Below, piece by piece: positions 3,299 through 19,830 of a stretch of DNA of 19,830 bases. The position numbers were made by a program, and so were the translations under genes. The DNA comes from a virus (taxonomy: Duplodnaviria; Heunggongvirae; Uroviricota; Caudoviricetes), in IMG/VR virus record IMGVR_UViG_2537561977_000028; one strand, given 5' to 3'. The notes beneath the pieces were generated by a model that worked only from the letters and a program-made list of their open reading frames with translations, was not told where the DNA came from and made no database searches. Numbering within the stretch: position 1 is the stretch's first letter; every line of letters begins with the position of its first letter.

Positions 3299-4359
3299 CC
3301 GTCCAGAAGAAGATATTTTCACTTGCTGGCATGTCGCCAAAATCCAGCAATATGACGGCAAAATCAGTTATTAATACAGCAGATACAAGCAAAGTTTATC
3401 ATTTGCTGGTGGTCGGAACGGATGCCTTAACCATACCAGAAATCTCGGGCGATGATATTAGCATTGAGAAGGTCAGCGGCTGCGCCAGAAAATTTCTGGT
3501 CGTAGATGATGTCTTCCGCTCGTGTAGTGACTCCACAAAAACATTCGTCCACGCGCGTGACGTTAACGAAATGAGCGCGATGTACTGTGCTTCTGGTTCT
3601 TCCAATAGTGAGTTTTCGGAGTCCATAAAAAAGAGCTTGCCGTTATGCGGCAACACGGTTTATGGTTATAAGGCACCTCATAAAACGGGTGCCGGGATTG
3701 GCGTCCTGAAAATTCTGAAGGCGACATATGACGCGCCGAGCGTCTTTTTTTATGTCGTAGGTCTGACTCACCCATTTTTTGGGCGTTGGTGTATAATCCA
3801 GCGCCTTTGTCAATCAATGGTGGCTCAGGCGGGGGCTTCTTCGGAAGCGCCGGTATCCTTCAGAGCCGGTTACGCCAACCCTGTCTGGGCTACCACCAGC
3901 GAAATTGGCGTTTCCGGTGGTAGCGTAACCTGCTATCTGAAGGAGGCTGCCACATGCTGGCTACTACCCCTACCCAAAAACCGCAATTTATCTGGATTAT
4001 CGCCGCAGTTCGCCGCGATTGCCCGACAATTACCGCCAAAATTCATCATATTGCTGCCGAGTCTGAACGCGATGCTCGCCGTTCTCTGGTGCGCGATCAC
4101 GTCTGCTTTTTTGCTGGTCGTATCCGCATGGAGGTGGCACATGATTAAAACCTACGATGTGCATATGGATCCCCTCGAACGCACAAGCCAGATCATCACA
4201 CTGACAGAAGTGATTAACGACATTCTGGTGAGCAACTCTCCCTCACGAGACGAAAGACTGAAGGCGTTACTCGCGATATTGGATCTCGCCGTTCGTGACG
4301 TTCATTTCCTGCTGGAAGGTGGCGAAATGCCAGGAAAAACGGGGGCAACCAATGAATAA
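3292..4359 (+). CDS. Open reading frame of uncertain extent (355 codons without stop); probably coding only in its 5' part
   Basis: ATG overlaps the upstream stop (ATGCTAA). Frame 1 is purine-rich at codon position 1 up to about 3950, then uses rare codons (CTA CTA CCC CTA, AGG, ATA) where frame 3 (3954..4148) looks coding. See findings. Confidence 0.3.
3954..4148 (+). CDS. Small hypothetical protein, 64 aa
   Basis: AGGAGG at 3941-3946, 7 nt before the ATG. Codons are mostly high-frequency NNC/NNG types. Stop overlaps the next ATG (ATGATTAA). Confidence 0.5.
   Translation: MLATTPTQKPQFIWIIAAVRRDCPTITAKIHHIAAESERDARRSLVRDHVCFFAGRIRMEVAHD
4141..4359 (+). CDS. Small hypothetical protein, 72 aa (internal start within the long frame-1 ORF)
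   Basis: GGAGGTGG precedes the ATG at 4141. Translation [30 protein letters not shown]... is protein-like. Stop overlaps the next start (ATGAATAA). Confidence 0.45.
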   Translation: MIKTYDVHMDPLERTSQIITLTEVINDILVSNSPSRDERLKALLAILDLAVRDVHFLLEGGEMPGKTGATNE

Positions 4360-4546
4360 CTCAATTAATGCCCCTCGACTTACGTCCGCACTTCAATTAA
4401 TCGAGCAAGCAGCGACTGTCCTGGTTGCTGTCAGTCTTTCGGCTGAAGAAATGGACGCTGCTGATGTCGTGGATGCGATTAAAGCGTGCTCATCTTTGGT
4501 TAACGATGCCCGTGCAGAGCTGGTAATTCTTGGGGGTGAAAAATGA
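4352..4546 (+). CDS. Small hypothetical protein, 64 aa
   Basis: ATG at 4352 preceded by GGGGG and overlapping the upstream stop. The ORF-track entry 4295..4546 is likely over-extended. Confidence 0.5.
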   Translation: MNNSINAPRLTSALQLIEQAATVLVAVSLSAEEMDAADVVDAIKACSSLVNDARAELVILGGEK

Positions 4547-4806
4547 ATATCAACTTAATTTATCGTCATCCGCGTGAGCTGGAAATTGAATCATTGCTGG
4601 GGCGTGAAGAGCCATATCCAGACACATTCACTCCCGCAGATTGCGCGACTGAACGGCTTACCAGAGCGCGCACAGGTCTGGTTCATGTGATGAATGAGAT
4701 TATTCCCTCGGTGGGAGGGGAACAGGCGACAGTAATCAATAGCTGGCTACAAAAAGTTACCTCCCTGATAGATATCAGTTTAATCGATGTGGAGAGTGCG
4801 AAATGA
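4543..4806 (+). CDS. Small hypothetical protein, 87 aa
   Basis: Start overlaps the upstream stop (ATGA) and its own stop overlaps the next ATG at 4803; part of a translationally coupled chain. Confidence 0.55.
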   Translation: MNINLIYRHPRELEIESLLGREEPYPDTFTPADCATERLTRARTGLVHVMNEIIPSVGGEQATVINSWLQKVTSLIDISLIDVESAK

Positions 4807-4920
4807 CCAACATCCAGCTCATTGAAGCGCAATGTCGCATCGAACAGGTTCAGACTGTTTTAGGGTTCTGGCTTGAAGGGGCCATCCCCATGAAGTGGTC
4901 AACAAAAACTGGCCACCGAG

Positions 4921-6068
<1,148 letters not shown>

Positions 6069-6269
6069 TATGGCACCTGTGTTGTTCTGAGGTGAGCATA
6101 TCACCTCTGTTCAGGTGGCCAAATTCAGTAAACCACTTCACCAGCAACAGAGACAAGTTAATGATTGGCGCGGTTATGTCACTGCTCAATGGCGTACCAG
6201 AAGCTATTCAGGAAGCAGACGAATTGTTGGGCAAATATGAGTTACAGAATCATTCAGGCGAGGCGAAAC

Positions 6270-6872
6270 ATGAATAATTTCTTAACCTTCCATGCAGAAG
6301 CAACGCCTGACGGCGTAAACATCATGTACCGCAGCAACGATGGCATGACAGAACGCGTTGAGGCCGTTTCATATATTGATGCCGTAAATCGTCTGGATGC
6401 CGGGGATTATGACGATAAACCAGATGAAGGTATGTCAATACATCTTGCTATTGCCGATGGCGGCAACCAGGGATATTTCGATTACACATCACAGCATAAC
6501 GTCATTATGTGGAGATGGCTGATCGCAACAGTATTCATGCTGGAAATGAGAGAGGAAAACGGCACTGTCAGCATCATTGATGATACTGGCAATCCTTCCG
6601 AAGTGGCTGTTTATTCCAACGGCATCGTCGCCATGCCGCTGTATCCAGTAGCAGAGCGCCTCGCTATGGCAAACAACATTGAGGGCGCGATGATAGAACG
6701 TTTTGGCATCGAGTCTGGCACAGAACGCGCCATCATTTTCTACAGAGCCATGATGGATGTGGAACAAGGAGCACTGACTCCATTTGGTCGTGAAACGCTT
6801 GCTGAACTTCACAACAGCTTTATAGCTGAACTGAATGAAAACGGCATGCCAGCGGAACCAGTGACGCACTGA
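6270..6872 (+). CDS. Hypothetical protein, 200 aa
   Basis: ATG at 6270 overlaps the stop of the disrupted small gene (ATGAATAA). The ORF-track entry starts at 6165 but the coupling pattern favours 6270. No recognisable motif. Confidence 0.55.
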   Translation: MNNFLTFHAEATPDGVNIMYRSNDGMTERVEAVSYIDAVNRLDAGDYDDKPDEGMSIHLAIADGGNQGYFDYTSQHNVIMWRWLIATVFMLEMREENGTVSIIDDTGNPSEVAVYSNGIVAMPLYPVAERLAMANNIEGAMIERFGIESGTERAIIFYRAMMDVEQGALTPFGRETLAELHNSFIAELNENGMPAEPVTH

Positions 6873-6882
6873 GGATGGAGCC

Positions 6883-7224
6883 ATGATTACTAAAAATTTC
6901 CGACTGAATGCGCTGGCAAATAAGTATGCGTCGGCACTGTATAACCACATTACCTCCACCAGCGGCGGGGACTATTTCATGGTTCATGCGGACGACAAGG
7001 CCGTACGTGTGGAAATCGTCAATGGAGTAAAAGGCGTTCGCAGCCTGATCGATAGCTACACACTGGCTGCCATGAAAGTGTTCTACCCGCAGTGGGAAAC
7101 CGTGGGGATCGAGCTTCTTGATCGTTGCGTCGCTAAGGACGGATTGACTGACGTCGGGCGTGAGATATGGCAAAGCATGGTTAATGACATGGGCGCAACT
7201 GTAGCGGGAGGTTCTCATGCGTGA
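6883..7224 (+). CDS. Hypothetical protein, 113 aa
   Basis: Plus-strand ORF in the operon upstream of the primase; stop overlaps the next start. Confidence 0.55.
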   Translation: MITKNFRLNALANKYASALYNHITSTSGGDYFMVHADDKAVRVEIVNGVKGVRSLIDSYTLAAMKVFYPQWETVGIELLDRCVAKDGLTDVGREIWQSMVNDMGATVAGGSHA

Positions 7225-7588
7225 AAATGCAGAAATGGCGCTTAGCTCCGCAATCGGAGAGCAGGTGGCAAAGATTGCTGGTGCTGTGTGGATTCATAAC
7301 CTTCATTCTACTGGTGAAGAGAAAATGGCAATTCAGACGCCAGAGGGACGCACCATTACTACATCTCTGAAGCCGTCAGATGTTTGTGATCTGATTTGCG
7401 CATTCATGTACCCAGCAATGAGGACTGTCCACGGCGATAAGTGGAAACTTGCGACAACCGCTGAATTTGATATGTGGCTAAACAATGATGGCATGCTGAC
7501 TGATTACGGAATAACCAAGTGGCAGATGCTGGTTAGCCATATCGCAAACGCTATAGACCACGTGGGGTACGGTGATGCGAAACATTGA
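7217..7588 (+). CDS. Hypothetical protein, 123 aa
   Basis: Plus-strand ORF overlapping the primase start by 17 nt. Confidence 0.55.
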   Translation: MRENAEMALSSAIGEQVAKIAGAVWIHNLHSTGEEKMAIQTPEGRTITTSLKPSDVCDLICAFMYPAMRTVHGDKWKLATTAEFDMWLNNDGMLTDYGITKWQMLVSHIANAIDHVGYGDAKH

Positions 7589-10331
7589 TCTTATCCGTCA
7601 GGTTATCAGTGCGTCTGAAAACAACTGGCCTCATGTGCTGGGCTGCCTGAACATAAATGTCCCTGACTCTCCGCGCCGTCATGCTCCCTGCCCTGCATGT
7701 GGGGGCAAAGATCGATTCCGGTTCGATGACAACGGGCGCGGTAGCTTCATCTGTAATCAGTGCGGCGCTGGTGATGGGCTGGATTTAATTAAACGCGTAA
7801 ATAACTGCGACACAACAGAGGCGGCGCTTCTTGCCGCTGATGTTCTGGGTATTGATTACCGGACAACGGAAACACCAGAAGCCACCAGCCAGAAACGGGA
7901 ACAACTGGAAACCGAGCGCCAGCGACGCGAACAGGAGCGCCTGAAAAGGGCAGAGAAGGACGAACAACAAAGACGGGATACGTTTTCCCGTCAGTTTGAT
8001 GACATGCGCAGAAAGGCTGTAAACGGCAAATCTGATTATCTGGTTGCGAAAGGGGTAGGTGATTTTACATTCCCCGTGTTGCCCGATGGATCTCTGTTGC
8101 TGGCGCTGGTGGATAAATCCGGCGCAGTCACAGCAGCACAGACTATTACCTCACATGGTGAAAAAAGACTCCTGACAGGTTCAGCAAAGCGGGGGGCATA
8201 TCACGCCATAAACGCACCAGAAACAACACAGAGCATCTTAATCGCAGAAGGGCTGGCAACGGCATTATCTGCCCATTTAATTCGTCCAGAGGCGCTGACA
8301 GTGGCGGCGATTGATGCCGGGAACCTGTTATATGTCGCCCAGGTACTGCGGGATAAATATCCATCAGCACAAATCATCATTGCTGCGGATAACGACCACA
8401 GCGAAGGAAGACAAAACACGGGGAGAATAGCAGCAGAAAAAGCAGCTTTATCTGTTTCTGGATGGGTGGCATTACCCCCCACAGATCACAAAGCAGACTG
8501 GAATGATTACCACCAAAAACACGGCATTAAATGCGCCACAGAAGCGTTCAATAAGTCAATGTACCAACCACAGGGTAATGGCGTGAAACAGGAGCCACAG
8601 ACCATTGAGGGAAGCGATTTTAAGGTTATGGATACCGACCCACTGAAACCAAGAATAGAAAGCCGCGAGGATGGTATTTATTGGGTATCTCCGAGAGCTG
8701 ACAGCCAGAGTGGAGAAATCATCAATAACGAAAGCTGGTTATGTTCTCCGTTAAGCGTTATCGGTACTGGCAGAGACGATAAAGACCAGTATCTCATTCT
8801 TCGCTGGCTGTCGTTTGGTTCTGAAACGCCGACAACCGCTGCCATTCCACTGGCTGATATTGGTGAACGTGAAGGATGGCGCACACTTAAAGCTGGTGGG
8901 GTAAATGTCACGACCAAAAGCAGCCTCAGAGCAATACTGGCAGACTGGCTACAACGCAGTGGCTCTCGTGAATTGTGGCGTGTTGCTCATGCCACTGGCT
9001 GGCAATGCGGAGCGTACATCATGCCTGATGGGGAAATCATCGGAACACCTGAAAATCCTGTGCTGTTCAGCGGGAGAAGCTCAGCCGCAGCCGGATATAC
9101 CGTCTCAGGGAGCGCGAAAAGCTGGCGTGATAACGTGGCGCGTCTGGCCTTTGGTAACTATTCAATGATGACCGGGATCGGCGCAGCACTGGCAGCGCCA
9201 TTGATTGGGCTGGTGGGCGCTGACGGGTTCGGCATTCATTTCTATGAGCAGTCGAGCGCAGGTAAGACCACCACGGCAAACGTGGCGAGCAGCTTATACG
9301 GCAACCCTGATTTACTGCGGCTGACGTGGTACGGAACCGCGCTGGGGCTGGCAAATGAAGCCGCCGCCCACAATGACGGACTAATGCCGCTTGATGAAGT
9401 TGGTCAGGGCGCTGATCCTGTCAGTGTTTCACAGTCTGCCTATGCGTTATTTAACGGTGTAGGGAAACTGCAAGGCGCTAAAGATGGTGGAAACCGGGAT
9501 CTAAAACGCTGGCGTACAGTGGCAATCAGCACTGGAGAAATGGATTTAGAAACATTTATCGCTACTTCCGGGCGAAAAACCAAAGCCGGGCAACTGGTGC
9601 GACTGCTGAATATTCCGTTGAGTAAAGCAGTACGCTTTCACGATTACCAGAACGGAAAACAGCACGCAGACGCACTGAAAGACGCTTACCAGCATCACCA
9701 CGGCGCAGCCGGGCGTGAGTGGATTAAATGGCTGGCAGACCACCAGCAACAGGCAATTAAAACTGTTCGTGACTGCGAAAGCAGATGGAGAAGTCTGATC
9801 CCATCCGATTATGGTGAGCAGGTTCACCGTGTAGCCGCGCGATTTGCCATTCTGGAGGCCGCATTGCTGTTAGGCGAGGTTGTAACAGGCTGGGATGCTC
9901 AGACATGCCGTGATGCGATACAGCACAGCTATAACGCATGGTTGCGCGAGTTCGGCACAGGTAACAAAGAACATCAGCAGATTATTGAACAAACGGAGGC
10001 ATTTCTTAATGCCTATGGGCTTAGCCGTTTTGCACCATTTCCATACAGCCCGGCAGATTTGCCCATCAAAGATTTGGCCGGATACCGTCAGCGTGGAGAA
10101 CATGACGAAAGCCCAATGATTTTCTACACATTCCCGGCCACATTTGAAAAGGAGATCGCATGTGGTTTCAACGCAAAACAGTTTGCTGAAGTGTTGAAAA
10201 AAGCCGGGATGCTAACCCCACCAAACAGCGGTCGTGGATACCAAAGAAAATCACCACGTATTCAGGGACGACAAATAAACGTTTATGTACTCAATTACCA
10301 GCCAGGAGATTATAACTCATCTGAAGAATGA
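7572..10331 (+). CDS. P4-alpha-like replicative primase-helicase (zinc ribbon + TOPRIM primase + C-terminal P-loop NTPase of DUF927/D5 type), 919 aa
   Basis: Cys4 zinc ribbon CPACGGKDRFRFDD...FICNQCG; TOPRIM motifs ILIAEGLATAL and IIIAADND; P-loop-like FYEQSSAGKTTT. Likely start is the ATG at 7575 (the track starts at GTG 7572). Confidence 0.85.
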   Translation: MMRNIDLIRQVISASENNWPHVLGCLNINVPDSPRRHAPCPACGGKDRFRFDDNGRGSFICNQCGAGDGLDLIKRVNNCDTTEAALLAADVLGIDYRTTETPEATSQKREQLETERQRREQERLKRAEKDEQQRRDTFSRQFDDMRRKAVNGKSDYLVAKGVGDFTFPVLPDGSLLLALVDKSGAVTAAQTITSHGEKRLLTGSAKRGAYHAINAPETTQSILIAEGLATALSAHLIRPEALTVAAIDAGNLLYVAQVLRDKYPSAQIIIAADNDHSEGRQNTGRIAAEKAALSVSGWVALPPTDHKADWNDYHQKHGIKCATEAFNKSMYQPQGNGVKQEPQTIEGSDFKVMDTDPLKPRIESREDGIYWVSPRADSQSGEIINNESWLCSPLSVIGTGRDDKDQYLILRWLSFGSETPTTAAIPLADIGEREGWRTLKAGGVNVTTKSSLRAILADWLQRSGSRELWRVAHATGWQCGAYIMPDGEIIGTPENPVLFSGRSSAAAGYTVSGSAKSWRDNVARLAFGNYSMMTGIGAALAAPLIGLVGADGFGIHFYEQSSAGKTTTANVASSLYGNPDLLRLTWYGTALGLANEAAAHNDGLMPLDEVGQGADPVSVSQSAYALFNGVGKLQGAKDGGNRDLKRWRTVAISTGEMDLETFIATSGRKTKAGQLVRLLNIPLSKAVRFHDYQNGKQHADALKDAYQHHHGAAGREWIKWLADHQQQAIKTVRDCESRWRSLIPSDYGEQVHRVAARFAILEAALLLGEVVTGWDAQTCRDAIQHSYNAWLREFGTGNKEHQQIIEQTEAFLNAYGLSRFAPFPYSPADLPIKDLAGYRQRGEHDESPMIFYTFPATFEKEIACGFNAKQFAEVLKKAGMLTPPNSGRGYQRKSPRIQGRQINVYVLNYQPGDYNSSEE

Positions 10332-10356
10332 GCTTCTTCATGTGCGTAGAAAAGGT

Positions 10357-10467
10357 GTTGGTTCAGTTGGTTCAGTTGGTTCAATTTGTAAAGAGTATTG
10401 TTTTATAAGGATTTTATTCTTTTTATTGAACCAACACTGAACCAACAACACGGTATTTTGAACCAAC
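10357..10467. promoter_or_regulatory. Iteron cluster A (candidate replication origin): 3 tandem GTTGGTTCA, 43-bp AT-rich spacer, 3 inverted TGAACCAAC
   Basis: GTTGGTTCA at 10357-10365, 10366-10374, 10375-10383. AT-rich spacer 10384-10426. TGAACCAAC at 10427-10435, 10438-10446, 10459-10467. Lies directly after the primase gene. Confidence 0.65.
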
Positions 10468-10788
10468 ACAATGTGACTGAATTGATGCGCACAACACCTG
10501 GCTGGCATCAGAGAGTGTTTTACGAGACTTTCGTAAAATCCTGTGTACAAGGGCGTGACGTTTTTGAAAGTGAGCACTACGAAATTTTCGTAGTTCAAAA
10601 AACAGCCTCTGAGAAGTTGTTATGCCTGTTCAGCAAACCATCCGCATAGCTGATCGCGAATCAAATTACCAATGGAGCCAGAAGCAAGGGCAGAACTGAA
10701 AAGTGCCTGCCGTGAAGAGTAATGCGACACCATAAATATAGTTTTTAGAGTCCATAAAAAACCTGTCAAAACCTGACACACAGAACGA

Positions 10789-10820
10789 TGCCACCAGCTA
10801 CTGAGCGGTGGCATTTTTTT
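10789..10820 (+). terminator. Rho-independent terminator candidate
   Basis: Stem TGCCACC / GGTGGCA (7 bp) with an 11-nt loop, followed by A + T7 (10814-10820). Confidence 0.6.
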
Positions 10821-10915
10821 GTGCTATTTGTTTCATATTTTGCAATTACGATGATGAATATTGCGATTTGTGAAACTATAATAACTGTTGTTTTATACAG
10901 TTCTAAGGGGGCGTT

Positions 10916-11077
10916 ATGGCTATTTCAGTAAAGCCGGTATTGATAAGTGAGAAGCAAATGGAAGCGATAAAGAAAATTCAGGAAGAGCAGCGTAAAAAAT
11001 CAGGAATTGGAGTAGCGCCAACTCTGCATGAAATTGCTCGAGGGTTAATAGATAAGGCGCTGGCAGGCTGTATGTGA
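10916..11077 (+). CDS. Small hypothetical protein, 53 aa (below the ORF-track cutoff); possible regulator
   Basis: ATG at 10916 preceded by AGGGGG. Translation MAISVKPVLISEKQMEAIKKIQEEQRKKSGIGVAPTLHEIARGLIDKALAGCM. Sits between the terminator and the cargo operon. Confidence 0.35.
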   Translation: MAISVKPVLISEKQMEAIKKIQEEQRKKSGIGVAPTLHEIARGLIDKALAGCM

Positions 11078-11093
11078 AAATGGATGGCATCGC

Positions 11094-11495
11094 ATGGAAC
11101 TAAAATTTATTGATAACCCTGTGCGATTACAGGCCTTTCTTAACGATCCTGGCAATACCGAAAATATTGTTGAGCCGGGGCACACGTACTACATCAAGCC
11201 TGATGCGGTATATCTCGGCATCTACGAAGGATTGGTGCTGGCTGGCGTTCATGAAGTGCGTAACTTCTGGCATAGCATTGTTGAATGCCATGCGGTGTAC
11301 GACCCCGGATTCCGTGGTGAATATGCACTGCAAGGGCATCGATTATTCTGCAAATGGCTTCTCGAAAACTCACCATTCCTTAACAGCATCACTATGGTTC
11401 CTGACACCACGAAATACGGACGGGCAATTATCCGTTTGCCCGTGTTGGTCACCTTGATGATGCTTATATCAGATGTGGTAAACCCGTCGGCGTAA
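11094..11495 (+). CDS. Hypothetical protein, 133 aa; first gene of the cargo operon
   Basis: Protein-like translation. The overlapping frame ORF 11110..11457 is Trp/Cys-rich and looks non-coding. Confidence 0.6.
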   Translation: MELKFIDNPVRLQAFLNDPGNTENIVEPGHTYYIKPDAVYLGIYEGLVLAGVHEVRNFWHSIVECHAVYDPGFRGEYALQGHRLFCKWLLENSPFLNSITMVPDTTKYGRAIIRLPVLVTLMMLISDVVNPSA

Positions 11496-13535: not shown

Positions 13536-16252
13536 TGGCACAACTGACAGAAAAACAGAAAGCCTATTCCCGTCATCTCGATGAAAAATATGGTTTCCCA
13601 TCAGGGACGATGGAAACATTAGTTGGCAATGAATCTAGTGGTAACGGAAGTGCCGAGTCACCGAAAGGAGCTAGAGGATTTGCTCAACTGATGCCCTCAG
13701 TAATGAGTGATGCTGGTTATCGTGGAACAGATCCGCGCTCACTGCCATTTGAAAAGCAAATGGATATCGCAGCAAACCATCTCAATAAAGGAATGAAGCG
13801 ATTTGGTGATATAGGTATGGCATTGGCTGGGTATAATTCTGGCTATGCTCGTATTAATGCCGTAAGAAACGGTAAATCTACACTGCCAGATGAAACGGCT
13901 AATTACGTAAGTAAATTTGCAGATGCCGGAATAATCCCTGATGACAGTGAAATCTTGCAGTTTGCACAAACCAGTCAACATCGCAATCTTCAGCAGCCTG
14001 ACTACTCAGAGCTTGATAAAGAAATCTCTCAGGTGGGAGATATTTCTGCATGGGAAGCAAAACGTCAGCAATTTAAGAACATAGAAGCAGGACTACCAAC
14101 AGCCAGTTCATGGGAGCAGAAAAGAGCTCATTTTCTCGCCGATGAAAATGCCGGGGAACCGCAGCAGCAAGTAGCCAAGTCTAACCTTAATCCTGAGATG
14201 GAATATCTTTCGCCAGGACTGAAAGCTGCGCCAGAGCAGATGGCCAGAGGGATTGCTAATATACCGTTTGATGTAATGGACGCAGGCGTGGGGGTAGTCA
14301 ATGCGGCGCAATCAGCCGGAGCATGGGCAGCTCAGAAGCTTGGTGTGGGTGATGGTACATACACGCCCATATCACCTGTCTTTCGCCCAGTAGACCAACC
14401 TACAGATCCATACGCGCAGGCTGGTGAGCAGCTAGCACCTTACCTTATTACAGGATTAGGTGCAGGAAAGGCAGCTACCGCAGCTTCTTCAGTTGCCAAC
14501 GCTCCACGTGCTGAACGTGCGGCCACAAAGGTGGCTAGTATGTTGGCAGAAAACCTGCCAGGTACATTGGTGAACGCCCAAAAGAACGGGCAGATCAGCC
14601 CAGAAGACCTAGCAAAAGAGACAGGTATTGGCCTAGCAGGATCGCTAGGAGCACGCGCTTTAATAAAGAGCGGACAGACAGCCAGTGACGTAATGCGAGA
14701 TGTATTGCGGAGTAATACAAATCAATCAAGCTATGTGTTAGGGGCAGCAAATACTCTGGAAACCGCCAATGATGTATCGAAAGCAGCGCGTTCTGCCGTA
14801 GGCCGAGAGCATATCGCATCGCAGGCATCAAACGTCAGAGATGATGTCGCTAAGGCGGCGAAAATCACTGGTATTAATATCAACACCCTGACGCCTGGAA
14901 TGCGCTCAGGTAGTCGTGGAATTGCCCAAGCAGAAGGTGTTCTGGCATCAACTCCTGGGAATGTTCAGGATGCTCACCTTACGGCCTTCAATGAAATATC
15001 CTCAAAGTTGAATAAGCAGTTGTCTGATTTCGGTGCTGATTCTGGAAGCGCATCAGAAAAAAGCGCAGCAATTAAAGAGCGCATCATCGCGAGCCTCAGT
15101 GATATGAAAACAGCAGAGAATATGGCATGGGCAGAACTGCGAAGCACGATGCCACGCGAAAGGATGAAAATGAGTAATGGGATGGCTGTCGTCCAAGCAG
15201 AAAAAGCAGCCAATGTTCCACTCAGCCCGGAGATGAAACAGTTTCAGGCTGCCAACAACCAAGGTGGCGGCATAACCTTCGACGGGATGAAGGCATGGCG
15301 TGCTAAGTTTGCTGATGCTGAACAAGCAAACACCCGGGCAGGTAAGGCCAATGCCGCCCGGGTTGCCGGAGAAATGCGCAGAGCTATCACTGATGACATG
15401 CGCATCATGGCTGAAAAAGGAAACTTCCTCACAGAATGGCAGAAAGCTAACGATCTCTCTAAAAGTTACATTATCGCCAAACAAAATGCCGAATCTGTTT
15501 TTGGTCGAGATCTCGCATCAGACGCTATGGTAAGAAAAGGTGCCGATACGCTTAAGGCATCCGCAAACACTGGAACGGGAGCTTTTCACCGTCTTATCTC
15601 CGCGCAGCCGGAAGCAGAACGCCAACCAGCAATAGCATCTATTCTTCAGCATGCTGTGGCGCAGGGAGAGAAGGGAGGAATCGGTGAAGAGTCTGGTATC
15701 CAGTATTTTGCCAAGCTCATGACCCAGCAGAATGTAAACGCCATCAGTCGTCATGCGCCAGATCTCGGTAGAATGATGAAAGAGTTCGGTGTACTCGCTA
15801 AAGCCAGCACCAGACCGCAGCGATACGTAGAGCGCACGGGAAGAACAACTGAGGCTCTCAAAACGCTCGATTCAGGCCTTCCAAAGATCGTCGGCGTGAT
15901 TATGAACGGAGTTCAACAGTCAGGTGCGATCGCTGGAGGCTTTGGCGGTGGTGTAATTGGTTCGATTAGTGGTTTGGTTGCTGGTGGCGCGCTGAGAAAT
16001 ACTGTGGCTAAGATTGGGGCGACAAGAAGTGGTCGATATGCGATAGAGAAAGCCGTTCAGGAAGCTACAAAAGCAGTGCGCGCAGGGGCATCACCAGCAG
16101 CGATCGCCGCAGCAGAGAAACGATTTTCGGCCAATAAAATTGCCATGAAAGCAATTCGTGATGCCGTTGGGGCTGAAGAATTCGTGAAACTGACAAGGGC
16201 CGGGATTGTAGCTACCCTCAGTGGCATGAAAGATGTTAGCGAATGGGAATAG
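13526..16252 (+). CDS. Large protein with N-terminal lytic transglycosylase (SLT) domain, Ala/Gln-rich central region and Gly-rich hydrophobic C-terminal segment, 908 aa
   Basis: SLT family-1 motifs: catalytic E-S in LVGNESSGNGSAESPKGARGFAQLMP and the AYNxG-type motif ALAGYNSGYARINAV. C-terminal GAIAGGFGGGVIGSISGLVAGGAL. Real start may be the ATG at 13532 or 13535, which are better spaced from the AAGGGA. Confidence 0.75.
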   Translation: MAMMAQLTEKQKAYSRHLDEKYGFPSGTMETLVGNESSGNGSAESPKGARGFAQLMPSVMSDAGYRGTDPRSLPFEKQMDIAANHLNKGMKRFGDIGMALAGYNSGYARINAVRNGKSTLPDETANYVSKFADAGIIPDDSEILQFAQTSQHRNLQQPDYSELDKEISQVGDISAWEAKRQQFKNIEAGLPTASSWEQKRAHFLADENAGEPQQQVAKSNLNPEMEYLSPGLKAAPEQMARGIANIPFDVMDAGVGVVNAAQSAGAWAAQKLGVGDGTYTPISPVFRPVDQPTDPYAQAGEQLAPYLITGLGAGKAATAASSVANAPRAERAATKVASMLAENLPGTLVNAQKNGQISPEDLAKETGIGLAGSLGARALIKSGQTASDVMRDVLRSNTNQSSYVLGAANTLETANDVSKAARSAVGREHIASQASNVRDDVAKAAKITGININTLTPGMRSGSRGIAQAEGVLASTPGNVQDAHLTAFNEISSKLNKQLSDFGADSGSASEKSAAIKERIIASLSDMKTAENMAWAELRSTMPRERMKMSNGMAVVQAEKAANVPLSPEMKQFQAANNQGGGITFDGMKAWRAKFADAEQANTRAGKANAARVAGEMRRAITDDMRIMAEKGNFLTEWQKANDLSKSYIIAKQNAESVFGRDLASDAMVRKGADTLKASANTGTGAFHRLISAQPEAERQPAIASILQHAVAQGEKGGIGEESGIQYFAKLMTQQNVNAISRHAPDLGRMMKEFGVLAKASTRPQRYVERTGRTTEALKTLDSGLPKIVGVIMNGVQQSGAIAGGFGGGVIGSISGLVAGGALRNTVAKIGATRSGRYAIEKAVQEATKAVRAGASPAAIAAAEKRFSANKIAMKAIRDAVGAEEFVKLTRAGIVATLSGMKDVSEWE

Positions 16253-16402
16253 ACGCTCTAACTAACAAAACCATAATAGCCAAGGACGGCATACTGATAT
16301 TGAGCCAACTATCAAAATTCCATATCACATTACGAGCCTGTGGCTTACATTCGCTTACAGTGATGATAATTTATAACCACGCAATTCTTAGGTGAGATTA
16401 TC

Positions 16403-17101
16403 ATGATTAAAAATCTTCTTTTAATATTATCCCTGTCATTATTGGCTGGATGCGTACAAAAACCGTTAGTAACGGTCAATGCTTTATCTTCCGGGCAATC
16501 TGTCGGTAAGAAGTTCTTGATCATCCCCGCAAGCCAAGAACTTTGGAACACCAAACAGATTGAATACACTCAAATAGCTACGGTAGTAGCCGCCAGTTTA
16601 TCAAGCCAAGGATATACACAAGTTAAAGATGAAAAATTGGCTGACCAGGTAATTCTCTTGAACTTTTTGAGAAGCGGGGCCATTTCAAATACTCGTAATG
16701 TAACCATCCCAATATACGGGCAAACTGGTGTGAGCTCAGCAACAACGTACGGAAACTCGAACACCACGTTCAATAGTTATGGTGGTGGCTACGGTACAGC
16801 TAATACCACTGGAACGGCAACAACAGTTTATACGCCTACTTATGGAATTACTGGCGCGTATAACACAACTGTGACGGACACGTTCTACGGCGCAGGGGTG
16901 ATACTCCAGTCGTTTGATGCCAAGGCCTATCTCAATAATAGGCAGATTAATATGTTATGGAAAGTTGGTAGCTCAGTCGTCTCGCAACAGTCTGATGGAA
17001 TTGCTGATTACAAGGGGTTGGCGAGAATAGCCGCTAGCTATGCCGGGAAAAATACAGAAGGTGATATAACTTTTAATGTTGACCCTAAAGCACCAAATTA
17101 A
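16403..17101 (+). CDS. Lipoprotein, Thr/Gly/Asn/Tyr-rich, 232 aa
   Basis: Signal peptide with lipobox MIKNLLLILSLSLLAG-C. GGTGAG 6 nt before the ATG. Low-complexity central region TTYGNSNTTFNSYGGGYGTANTTGTATTVYTPTYG. Locally AT-rich compared with its neighbours. Confidence 0.7.
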   Translation: MIKNLLLILSLSLLAGCVQKPLVTVNALSSGQSVGKKFLIIPASQELWNTKQIEYTQIATVVAASLSSQGYTQVKDEKLADQVILLNFLRSGAISNTRNVTIPIYGQTGVSSATTYGNSNTTFNSYGGGYGTANTTGTATTVYTPTYGITGAYNTTVTDTFYGAGVILQSFDAKAYLNNRQINMLWKVGSSVVSQQSDGIADYKGLARIAASYAGKNTEGDITFNVDPKAPN

Positions 17102-17108
17102 CTAATAA

Positions 17109-17129
17109 GCCCGGTACGCCGGGCATTTT
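17109..17129 (+). terminator. Rho-independent terminator candidate after the lipoprotein gene
   Basis: GCCCGG-TACG-CCGGGC hairpin followed by ATTTT, 8 nt after the stop codon. Confidence 0.55.
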
Positions 17130-17244
17130 GCCCCCTATTATTCATGAATCGCTTTTTCTAGAAGGTATGCGACAAACGTTAAGTGACATTGCCTACACAT
17201 TCGGGGCGGGATTTCAAATCCGCTCCCAGTTGATGGGGCCGTTA

Positions 17245-17614
17245 CAGTACGCGCATATCCGCTTTATGTGAAACAGGAAGATTTTTCTGATATCACAGCC
17301 ACCGCAAAACACCAATTTCGTGACCAGTACGCGCGCGAGGTGTATCAGTTGCAAAATTTTTTGCAGCTGTGTCCGACCAGTACGCACGCGATGGCGGGGA
17401 GCACCATAAAACTGTTCTCTACATAAGACAGAGTGGTGGTGATGTGTTGATTATCGGCGTATATGCGCACAGGACGCGCTATGACGATGTTTTATGCACA
17501 TGTATCTGGTGTGATAAATCGCGTTACATGACCTCTCATGTTGTGCTGGTGGTTATCACGACTTTCTGAATCTGGCCTTTGCCTGATATTTTGCGACAAG
17601 TACGCGCGCGTAGC
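17245..17614. repeat. Four dispersed copies of a ~16-bp GC-rich motif GAC(C/A)AGTACGC(G/A)CGCG, partly palindromic (TACGCGCGCGTA)
   Basis: Copies at about 17245-17254, 17322-17337, 17375-17390 and 17595-17610. The region between copies 2 and 3 holds the palindrome TTGCAAAATTTTTTGCA. Confidence 0.5.
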
Positions 17615-17638
17615 ATCGACAGCATACACATTGGATAT

Positions 17639-17860
17639 TCATTTTGTGACCAATGCGATAAGTAGCGGGATAAGAATTGATAAAATCAACAGGCCGATGA
17701 TCCACTTTTGATTTTCACTGGCCTTATCTCTATTTTCATCCATCTTATCAATAATTCGACGCTCCAAGCCGTGCATATCACCGCGAATGGCAATCATCTC
17801 ATTGCGAACATCCGAGAAGTGGTTGGCTTGATGTTCAATGTGTGGCGTTCTGCCTTTCAT
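17639..17860 (-). CDS. Small tail-anchored membrane protein, 73 aa (XhlA/holin-like architecture)
   Basis: Charged N-terminal region plus a single C-terminal transmembrane segment (WIIGLLILSILIPLLIALV). GAGGA RBS upstream on the minus strand. Family name is a guess. Confidence 0.5.
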   Translation of the reverse strand: MKGRTPHIEHQANHFSDVRNEMIAIRGDMHGLERRIIDKMDENRDKASENQKWIIGLLILSILIPLLIALVTK

Positions 17861-18663: not shown

Positions 18664-18951
18664 ATGATAAGGGACAGGAAAGCTGAAGAGCTGGAGTCAA
18701 AAGGGCTATACCGGAGAGTTGCCGCACGATGGGCAGAAGTCATGATGCTGGCAGATGGCGATAAAGAACGTGAACATGCAGCAAACAGACGCTCTGAATG
18801 TATCCGTAAGGCGGCACGCCCACCAGCAACTACAGACAGATTCGGAGATTTAAGACAGGCAGTTAAGCGGACTCATTCGGCTCTTGGTATGGATGAGGAA
18901 GCGAGAGGGTACTTCAGGCGTTATCGCGATAAAGATTGCCAGAGACAGTAA
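18664..18951 (+). CDS. PerC-family transcriptional regulator-like protein, 95 aa
   Basis: N-terminus MIRDRKAEELESKGLYRRVAARWAEVMM matches my memory of PerC/Pch-family proteins common in P4-like islands. GAGAGG RBS; TATAAT at 18645-18650 just after the iterons. Confidence 0.55.
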   Translation: MIRDRKAEELESKGLYRRVAARWAEVMMLADGDKEREHAANRRSECIRKAARPPATTDRFGDLRQAVKRTHSALGMDEEARGYFRRYRDKDCQRQ

Positions 18952-19419
18952 TGCTCTCTCTGTTTTGGCAAATTACCCCTCACTTTGAAGGGATCGGAGC
19001 TATAAAAATGGTTTTAGGTACATTCCTCAAATTGAGGATTGTGGGAAAACCAATGGGTTAGGCTTTTCCCCCAATGGGGGTTTTCGAAAGAATCAATGGG
19101 TTAGTCCATCGTGCAAATTTGCACCCTGCCAGCCAACGCAATTTCTCGTTGGCGAAAATATCAGGTATTTACTGAACGAACGGTCTACCAGTCTGTTCAG
19201 TTACCAGTTGTACATGGCTGCTTTATGTGCAAATGGTGGTGAGAGAAAATTGTTTGGGGGTACTTTTGGGGGTATCTCCAAATACGCAATGGGGAAATGT
19301 CTTTATATATCAATGTATTTTTATTGTTTGTTTTGTTCCTATTATCGCATTTGTGCCATTGTAACCTTGGCAATTCATCAAAATACTGTTCTGACATCAG
19401 GCAGTGCAGGTGCAGCTAT

Positions 19420-19830
19420 TTAAACCAATTGCTGCTGCCATTCTTTGACGTAGTCAATCAGGGCGCGGAGCTTTGGTGCAATATTGCGACGCTGTGGGAA
19501 ATACAGATAGAAGCCCGGAAATTGTGGAAGAAAGTCATCAAGCAGCGATACAAGCTTACCGCTTTCAATATATGGCCTGAAAGTTTCCTGAGTGGCAATT
19601 GTTATTCCTCCGCCGGCAAGAGCCAGCCTCAACATCAGACGCAGATCATTAGTCGTAATCTGCGGTTCAATCGCAAGGTCGAAAGTTCTCCCGTTTTCTT
19701 CAAATGGCCAGCGATAAGGCGCAACCTCCGGGGACTGACGCCAGCCGATACACTTATGGGTATTTTCCCCGCAGGTGAGAAAGCGCTCTCCACGCCCGGC
19801 CGCAAGGATCAGGACGACGGGGGCAGGCAT
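19420..19830 (-). CDS. LysR-family transcriptional regulator, C-terminal substrate-binding part only (gene continues beyond the window end)
   Basis: Translation ...LRLMLRLALAGGGITIATQETFRPYIESGKLVSLLDDFLPQFPGFYLYFPQRRNIAPKLRALIDYVKEWQQQLV is a typical LysR C-terminus. The N-terminal HTH would lie past 19830. Probably chromosomal flank. Confidence 0.75.
   Translation of the reverse strand: MPAPVVLILAAGRGERFLTCGENTHKCIGWRQSPEVAPYRWPFEENGRTFDLAIEPQITTNDLRLMLRLALAGGGITIATQETFRPYIESGKLVSLLDDFLPQFPGFYLYFPQRRNIAPKLRALIDYVKEWQQQLV

Follow-up and report, generated by a model that had tools for sequence, protein, structure and literature searches.

The DNA analyzed here, referred to as the window, is a 19,830-nucleotide stretch from a Caudoviricetes record of IMG/VR (IMGVR_UViG_2537561977_000028). 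Near its 3' end lies a gene for a lipoprotein, which a first-pass annotation had described as the low-complexity product of a prophage gene with a conceivable part in superinfection exclusion. Here we analyze the predicted structure of this lipoprotein, its family and the island that carries it, and tentatively propose that it acts against incoming phage. The gene and its associated features are as follows.

16338..16402, plus strand: promoter-like stretch of about 65 bp preceding the ATG, with hardly any variation among orthologous islands
16403..17101, plus strand: lipoprotein gene, ATG start, 232 residues; corresponds to WP_000594596.1, annotated 'hypothetical protein'
16403..16453, plus strand: signal peptide with lipobox LAGC; Cys17, with Val at position +2
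16688..16882, plus strand: predicted protruding beta-hairpin, about residues 96–160; strands 82–126 and 130–172, turn Gly127–Gly129
16709..16753, plus strand: motif 1, P-x-[YWF]-G-Q-T-G-V-S-S-x-T-T-x-G, residues 103–117
16823..16855, plus strand: motif 2, T-x-Y-x-P-T-Y-G-I-T-G, residues 141–151
17109..17130, plus strand: terminator-like hairpin of six G-C pairs and a tetraloop, followed by AUUUUG

The open reading frame (ORF) and the canonical lipobox of the first-pass annotation both stood, with 16403–17101 encoding 232 residues and the signal peptide MIKNLLLILSLSLLAG directly preceding the cysteine of L-A-G-C (residues 14–17). This cysteine is kept in at least 90% of the homologs in a 128-sequence alignment, which also underlies the conservation values given below. 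The cleavable signal peptide is the sole hydrophobic segment of the protein, which has no transmembrane helices, and only four residues separate Cys17 from the first strand. Lol avoidance requires Asp at position +2 of a lipoprotein. Given the Val at this position, default outer-membrane sorting is expected, and from its export signal the mature lipoprotein is most likely sorted to the outer membrane. A Shine-Dalgarno sequence, AGGTGA (16390–16395), lies 7 nt 5' of the ATG. The annotated 272-residue models of 89%-identical orthologs (locus coordinates 10001–10819) begin 40 codons earlier; since the conserved Met, the Shine-Dalgarno sequence and the signal peptide fit the 232-residue form, the starts of these longer models are probably misannotated. 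A 50-residue ORF across the gap (16243–16395) was rejected as a gene, its frame being broken in orthologous islands with 4- and 13-nt indels, as were the antisense ORFs 16345–16569 and 16570–16773.

An initial search returned 37 relatives of the protein; when 1.84 billion cluster representatives were searched with a profile, 3,824 matched at E ≤ 1e-3, including 654 at E ≤ 1e-30. Against Pfam DUF4136 (PF13590) the window protein scored 14.2 bits (E 0.062), below the threshold of 32.8; given that 77 of the 128 aligned relatives match this family, it is a divergent member of a DUF4136 subfamily, which is defined by a GQTGVSS...PTYGITG hairpin. The first-pass annotation had weighed an exclusion role against homology to a housekeeping lipoprotein family. 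A family was indeed found, but DUF4136 has no assigned function, and its source names are all 'hypothetical', 'lipoprotein' or 'DUF4136'. Neither NCBIfam nor the viral structures of BFVD returned a match for the lipoprotein, and PADLOC-DB v2 returned no defense-model match for it or its neighbors; in the PDB, searched by sequence, there was just a chance 18-residue match to a glucanase (E 1.9). A reading as an Rz-like spanin was rejected, the PHROG matches behind it (E 0.2–0.6) covering residues 1–25 only, that is, the signal peptide. The DUF4136 mentioned in the UG5 paper was set aside as irrelevant, since it concerns the cytoplasmic linker domain of a reverse-transcriptase fusion. In the structural models, the body of the window protein is an alpha/beta lipoprotein fold of the PelC/TraT/CsgG/LptE type.

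Residues 104–152, called repetitive and of low complexity in the first-pass annotation, comprise 14 Thr, 10 Gly, 6 Tyr, 4 Ser, 4 Ala and 4 Asn, with no charged residue at all. No DNA tandem repeat lies beneath this Thr/Gly/Tyr-rich core, and rather than low-complexity sequence it is a structural element, conserved more strongly than any other segment of the family. Gly106, Gly109 and Gly151 are invariant, and conservation reaches at least 90% at Pro103, Gln107, Thr108, Thr115, Gly117, Gly127, Thr141, Pro145, Tyr147 and Gly148; nearly all positions of the whole alignment that are invariant or close to it fall within this region. A GQ[TS]G match is found in 169 of 184 family sequences. The segment between the two motifs consists of 26% Thr, 20% Gly, 14% Ser and 11% Tyr, with a mean of 0.43 charged residues (n = 111 representatives), and the hairpin holds few strongly hydrophobic residues (Val 4.8%, Ile 3.2%, Leu 0.9%, Phe 1.6%). 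With an alignment of 28 sequences, AlphaFold2 modeled the alpha/beta core confidently and gave residues 110–145 a predicted local distance difference test score (pLDDT) below 50. With 128 sequences the mean pLDDT was 95.1, no segment fell below 70, and the Thr/Gly/Tyr-rich core formed one very long hairpin, about 30 residues of each strand extending past the domain. In strand 2, Thr or Ser residues (136, 138, 140, 142, 144, 146 and 150) alternate with Tyr, Gly or Ile (137, 143, 147 and 149). Furthermore, indels at the tip are paired on both arms, as (5,4) in 72 sequences and as (9,8) or (9,9) in 11, with (4,3) and (3,2) also occurring. Both the alternation and the paired indels agree with a hairpin.

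A Foldseek search with the deeper model matched pore-state lysenin, epsilon toxin, aerolysin, CDTb, anthrax PA and iota Ib through the hairpin, at E values of 5e-4 to 1e-2 and TM-scores of just 0.1–0.17, which weakly points to a likeness of geometry only. These beta-pore-forming toxins, the alternation of Thr/Ser with Tyr/Ile in strand 2, and the fact that some family loci adjoin a reverse transcriptase or a restriction enzyme would suit a pore-forming or abortive-infection effector, whose long amphipathic hairpins form a permeabilizing barrel when triggered. However, the TM-scores of the toxin matches are very low, and a protein that is permanently lipid-anchored, apparently constitutive and devoid of a partner or sensor gene is unlikely to be a suicide effector. 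Stable carriage in 76 E. coli genomes moreover implies no toxicity, and PADLOC was negative. We therefore consider an effector of this kind very improbable.

Among proteins of known function, TraT offers the closest point of comparison. It is a decameric outer-membrane surface-exclusion lipoprotein with a beta-sandwich core and inserted amphipathic transmembrane helices (PMC11733297). Structures are available for TraT (PDB 9e2v, 9fs5 and 9fsm), and for DUF4136 there is the crystal structure of BT2437 (PDB 4f54). Like the window protein, TraT has a PelC/CsgG/LptE-type fold. Against Pfam TraT (PF05818), the window protein scored 12.9 bits (E 0.09; 0.091 unrounded) with a threshold of 31. An apparent homology in hhalign (93.6%, E 2e-7) fell to 13% over 33 columns once the signal peptides were removed; the signal had come from signal peptides and lipoboxes, and homology to TraT is thus not claimed. 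The TraT alignment behind this comparison was shallow, the best 120 matches all being at least 79% identical. In what remains of the alignment, helix alpha-1 and the next strand of one protein pair with those of the other ('GY.VV..P..A..'), which would place the window hairpin at the topological position of the TraT alpha3/alpha4 membrane hairpin; this putative equivalence rests on sequence alignment and secondary structure rather than on superposed coordinates. The insertion differs in kind, being two amphipathic helices in TraT and, in the window protein, a beta-hairpin with strands of about 30 residues each. Unlike TraT, the window model has no N-terminal amphipathic helix after Cys17, and it lacks the three amphipathic transmembrane helices (alpha1, alpha3 and alpha4) that form an alpha-helical barrel in TraT. 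TraT is borne by F-like plasmids, whereas the window gene resides on phages and satellites, with no copy among 72,556 plasmids.

Other comparisons separate the window protein further from characterized systems. CsgG, PelC and the flagellar LPHT-ring proteins, all ring-forming lipoproteins of the outer membrane, are parts of dedicated secretion or motility machines with conserved partner genes, whereas the window gene has none, and its hairpin is longer and more polar than their counterparts. Cor (phi80, N15, T1 and HK022) and Llp (T5) are phage-encoded outer-membrane lipoproteins whose genes lie near tail or receptor-binding genes; they are about 60–90 residues long and bind FhuA. They are much smaller than the 232-residue window protein, whose fold and hairpin have no counterpart in them; the first-pass annotation had named them as examples, and no match in PHROG, the phage databases or BFVD links them to the window protein, which is unrelated to them.

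The positions of relatives, listed with their sequence identity to the window protein, were more informative as to a role.

Enterobacteriaceae, 89%: the same island, from primase through ejection block to lipoprotein, at other chromosomal sites
Metagenomic contig, 83%: no ejection block; near an Eco57I-type restriction enzyme
Serratia, 62%: complete P22-like prophage, with gp16 before the lipoprotein gene and arc, then tailspike, after it
Rouxiella, 46%: lambda-like tail cluster, in the interval from gpK to gpI, with a second lipoprotein gene next (locus 10001–11106)
Metagenomic contig, 45%: P2-like phage, between the tail fiber/Tfa genes and the tail sheath gene
Metagenomic contig, 43%: in the order phrog_770 gene-16 homolog, lipoprotein, mnt/arc/ant
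Serratia nevei, 39%, and several IMG/VR podophages: after the last large internal virion protein and before the tailspike
Vibrio fluvialis, 28%: directly 3' of a 426-residue reverse transcriptase, in an island with an integrase, a KilA-N protein and a resolvase (locus 4342–9500)
More distant relatives: cargo end of small integrase-AlpA-primase islands

The ORF upstream of the lipoprotein gene on the 43% contig has no BLASTP similarity to the window gp16, and PHROG puts both in phrog_770. The second lipoprotein gene of Rouxiella encodes a 132-residue phrog_890 'lipoprotein', and the Vibrio fluvialis locus may be part of a defense island. The site occupied on the P2-like 45% contig corresponds to the Z/fun locus of the P2 map; it is position only that this relative shares with the Z/fun cargo, the Fun protein itself not having been compared. 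The Z/fun locus has been cited as an antiviral locus (PMC13586616). In P22-like prophages, sieA resides between gene 16 and the tailspike, and only 22 of 66 such phages have it (PMC10883804). SieA thus shares a slot, from gene 16 to the tailspike/immI of P22-like prophages, with relatives of the window protein, and both are variably present single-gene envelope cargo. SieA itself crosses the inner membrane several times and carries the motif FxRYPxEAxxFNK (PMC10883804), whereas the window protein lacks this motif and has no sequence relationship to SieA; given its lipoprotein signal and the absence of transmembrane helices, its site of action would be the outer membrane or the periplasm, not the inner membrane. 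Hence the idea that placement after ejection-like genes echoes the positions of exclusion genes gained support, in that relatives occupy both the P22 sieA slot and the P2 position.

Close relatives (39%–89%) with enough flanking sequence all lie in a phage, a satellite or a variable defense-like region, and in 38 diverse genomes with more divergent members the gene has no conserved neighbor, which suggests a self-contained single-gene function. These observations bear on the prosaic alternative that an ordinary envelope-housekeeping DUF4136 lipoprotein has been picked up by mobile elements and serves no element-related function. It draws on the DUF4136 matches of 77 of 128 members and on the size of the family, which extends over many diderm phyla, mostly in non-mobile-looking neighborhoods. 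The mobile settings of the close relatives argue against it, as do the lack of a conserved operon partner, the sporadic distribution (1.4% of complete E. coli genomes) and the survival of an intact lipoprotein gene in an island copy that bears an IS911 and a frameshifted gp14-like gene (see below). We regard it as highly unlikely.

The lipoprotein gene is chromosomal and present in single copy, at 95%–100% identity, in 76 of 5,426 complete E. coli genomes (1.4%), the carriers including both commensal and pathogenic strains of animal and human origin. In strain PF9285 it lies in an island of about 20 kb at tRNA-Thr, between proA and the yagU side, with the gene order integrase, antirepressor, Ash, Toprim/DUF927 primase, gp14-like (DUF2824), gp7, gp20, SLT-gp16, lipoprotein and PerC-like, and without capsid, terminase or lysis genes. 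Two primers of a published study match the window exactly, at 17086–17114 and 18664–18683 (PMC11773190). From these matches and the gene organization, we conclude that the window is an island of the EcCIMP1 type. The element is thus a phage satellite, a phage-inducible chromosomal island (PICI), and not the prophage envisaged in the first-pass annotation. Its main features outside the lipoprotein gene are listed below.

4891–6140, transposase ORFs on the minus strand: IS911 copy in the early region, 97% identical to the IS911 of phage Sf6
11094..16252, plus strand: P22-type ejection block, consisting of the gp14-like DUF2824 gene (frameshifted here), gp7, gp20 and SLT-gp16
11094–11495, plus strand: gp14-like DUF2824 gene, with a 10-bp deletion near 11438 relative to PF9285 that shortens the ORF from 153 to 133 codons
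13526..16252, plus strand: SLT-gp16 gene, N-terminal SLT domain; phrog_770 at 1e-120, PF26808 in orthologs
18664–18951: PerC-family gene, its start matching the EcCIMP1_025 cloning primer exactly

The SLT-gp16 gene belongs to the P22 gp16 or 'DNA transfer protein' family, and its product of 908 residues, versus 723 residues in Kapi1, has an extra N-terminal SLT domain. A satellite that supplies its own full P22-type set of ejection proteins seems unusual. No transposase is annotated at the matching place in the PF9285 island; the IS911 insertion and the frameshifted gp14-like gene suggest decay of the window copy, in which the lipoprotein gene is intact.

EcCIMP1 is a phage-inducible chromosomal island of E. 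coli MP1 that is mobilized by the P22-like phage Kapi1 (PMC11773190). It increases the superinfection immunity of Kapi1 lysogens, and the authors found no known defense system in it; its deletion left growth in gut-mimicking media unaffected and Kapi1 titers from induced lysogens unchanged (PMC11773190). The lipoprotein is not mentioned in that study, and the ejection-type genes of the island are labeled just 'DNA transfer' or possible morphogenesis genes (PMC11773190). In the helper Kapi1 itself, the slot from gene 16 to the tailspike holds different cargo, two small genes. These are Kapi1_059 and Kapi1_060 (103 and 61 residues, locus 6629–7171), which follow the gene-16 homolog on the opposite strand with predicted signal peptides, and which may represent different envelope-directed cargo in the same slot.

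The boundaries of the gene indicate how it may be expressed. The gap after the SLT-protein gene, put at 150 bp in the first-pass annotation, is exactly 16253–16402, and the AT-rich 5' region noted there, unlike the upstream operon in composition, is reflected in a G+C content of 0.40–0.42 over 16201–16800 versus 0.53 over 15601–16200. Across orthologous islands, indels and divergence mark the distal part of the gap and the last part of the SLT gene, unlike the 65 bp or so proximal to the ATG, which contain CTTACA (16344–16349) and, after 15 nt, GATAAT (16365–16370). At the 3' end, a terminator of its own had been proposed; the hairpin GCCCGG-uacg-CCGGGC (17109–17124) is present at -12.7 kcal/mol, but it is modest, with just four U after it and z = -1.65 versus shuffled sequences. 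The copy in the Serratia P22-like prophage has TTGCAT-16-TGaTAAATT upstream and a strong terminator of its own. The promoter-like stretch, the terminator hairpin and the lower G+C content fit a moron with its own signals. No terminator was found in the 150-bp gap, however, and in the Serratia nevei podophage the lipoprotein gene begins before the virion gene ahead of it has ended, which implies that the two are transcribed together there; late co-transcription is therefore also possible.

T5 Llp masks receptors on debris and thereby protects progeny. By analogy, the window protein might serve late in the lytic cycle of its own element, masking receptors on debris or aiding release. Such a function would explain a gene that stands last in the ejection operon with no terminator before it, that overlaps its virion-gene neighbor in Serratia nevei and that in E. 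coli is always linked to SLT-gp16 (with the whole block present in 73 genomes), and it would accord with an EcCIMP1 effect seen solely in the presence of the helper. On the other hand, the conserved promoter-like stretch and the lower G+C content point to an independent transcription unit, the 83%-identical copy has no ejection genes beside it, and further copies lie in siphophage or myophage tail regions and in small satellites; nor were Kapi1 titers from induced lysogens altered by EcCIMP1. On balance, we hold a late function to be distinctly unlikely.

TraT, Bor/Iss and Lom alter the outer-membrane surface against complement and phagocytosis. A fitness or virulence factor of lysogenic conversion, which changes the surface in defense against complement, phagocytosis or other envelope insults and has no particular part in phage resistance, therefore deserves consideration. 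The fold is common with TraT, which gives serum resistance as well as exclusion, and the gene is moron-like with its own signals. It occurs in commensal and pathogenic E. coli of animals and humans, and EcCIMP1 also bears a virulence-modulating PerC-like gene, EcCIMP1_025, which represses LEE1 expression in Citrobacter rodentium (PMC11773190). Nevertheless, many family members belong to environmental diderms (Nitrospirae, Desulfobulbus, Methylococcales and Planctomycetes), the recurrent sieA and Z/fun slots suit a phage-directed role better, and the loss of EcCIMP1 did not affect growth in gut-mimicking media. A conversion factor of this type appears unlikely to us.

Our preferred reading, which we put forward tentatively and rate slightly short of an even chance, is that the window protein is a ring-forming outer-membrane lipoprotein that excludes incoming phage, with its hairpins as a long barrel or stalk, and that it is a candidate for the factor behind the EcCIMP1 phenotype. 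Initially, the exported protein would receive its lipid at Cys17 and, most likely, reach the outer membrane, with the alpha/beta domain held close to the membrane and the uncharged Thr/Ser/Gly/Tyr hairpin projecting from it. Protomers would then assemble into a ring, in which the hairpins may come together, within the outer membrane or upon it, as a long beta-barrel or stalk. Finally, this assembly would hinder the entry of superinfecting phage at the envelope, by interfering with the crossing of the outer membrane or with assembly of the trans-envelope ejection conduit. The gene would thus be a one-gene exclusion module that moves with temperate phages and satellites, and its product a candidate for the effector of EcCIMP1 immunity. 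Its candidacy follows from the window being of the EcCIMP1 type and from that island conferring immunity with no recognizable defense system, and relatives in the sieA and Z/fun positions support a phage-directed role.

Several observations weigh against this proposal. EcCIMP1 has no effect on Kapi1 infection of non-lysogens, and neither EcCIMP1 nor Kapi1 alone gives full protection (PMC11773190). The lack of effect in non-lysogens makes a constitutive stand-alone block of Kapi1 unlikely; either the helper would be needed for expression or action, or other phages would be the targets. A hairpin so poor in hydrophobic residues is atypical of a lipid-facing barrel, and at TM-scores of 0.1–0.17 any long hairpin might match pore toxins. 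The spacing of the putative promoter is suboptimal, and a consensus scan made no call. Searches of 50,697 cultured phage genomes by DNA and by tblastn, the latter even at E 1, gave no relative, nor did the plasmids mentioned above. The very distant relatives in the 38 genomes, which span many diderm phyla, have few mobile-element genes nearby; the deep family is not exclusively mobile.

In its fullest form, the proposal would make the protein the founder of a new class of exclusion factors, in which a TraT/CsgG-like ring carries the Thr/Tyr/Gly hairpins of about 30 residues per strand as a long outer-membrane barrel that obstructs the trans-envelope ejection conduit or the outer-membrane penetration of incoming phages, acts as the as yet unassigned EcCIMP1 effector and travels as a single-gene cassette among P22-, P2- and lambda-like phages and satellites in sieA and Z/fun slots. 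Taken as a whole, this version is unlikely.

Two regions 3' of the gene were recorded besides. Beyond the lipoprotein terminator, 17203–17660 contains iteron-like direct repeats, with CAGTACGCGC occurring five times and a 23-nt unit, ATTTCGTGACCAGTACGCGCGCG, three times, the copies being spaced by 53 and 220 nt. The part 17203–17400 alone is 91%–98% conserved in about 460 further E. coli genomes that have no lipoprotein gene, and the region may be a replication origin or a regulatory region common to a wider PICI family. The terminal 485 bp or so (19346–19830) match the end of Escherichia phage phi458 at 98% identity; in the phage, the sequence is annotated as a 'tail assembly protein'.

In summary, envelope-level exclusion and conversion lipoproteins of mobile elements are a kind already known; the window protein, as a candidate member, brings an uncharacterized architecture of fold plus hairpin and a direct link to an unexplained published phenotype. 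EcCIMP1 is one of the few experimentally studied phage-inducible islands of Gram-negative bacteria, and its immunity phenotype has no assigned gene. The DUF4136 subfamily, uncharacterized despite thousands of cluster representatives, combines a ring-lipoprotein fold with a long, conserved and uncharged hairpin, and solving the role of this hairpin would give the subfamily a function. The presence of the gene in the exclusion slots of three temperate phage architectures suggests a portable envelope-level exclusion cassette that defense-finding tools have missed.

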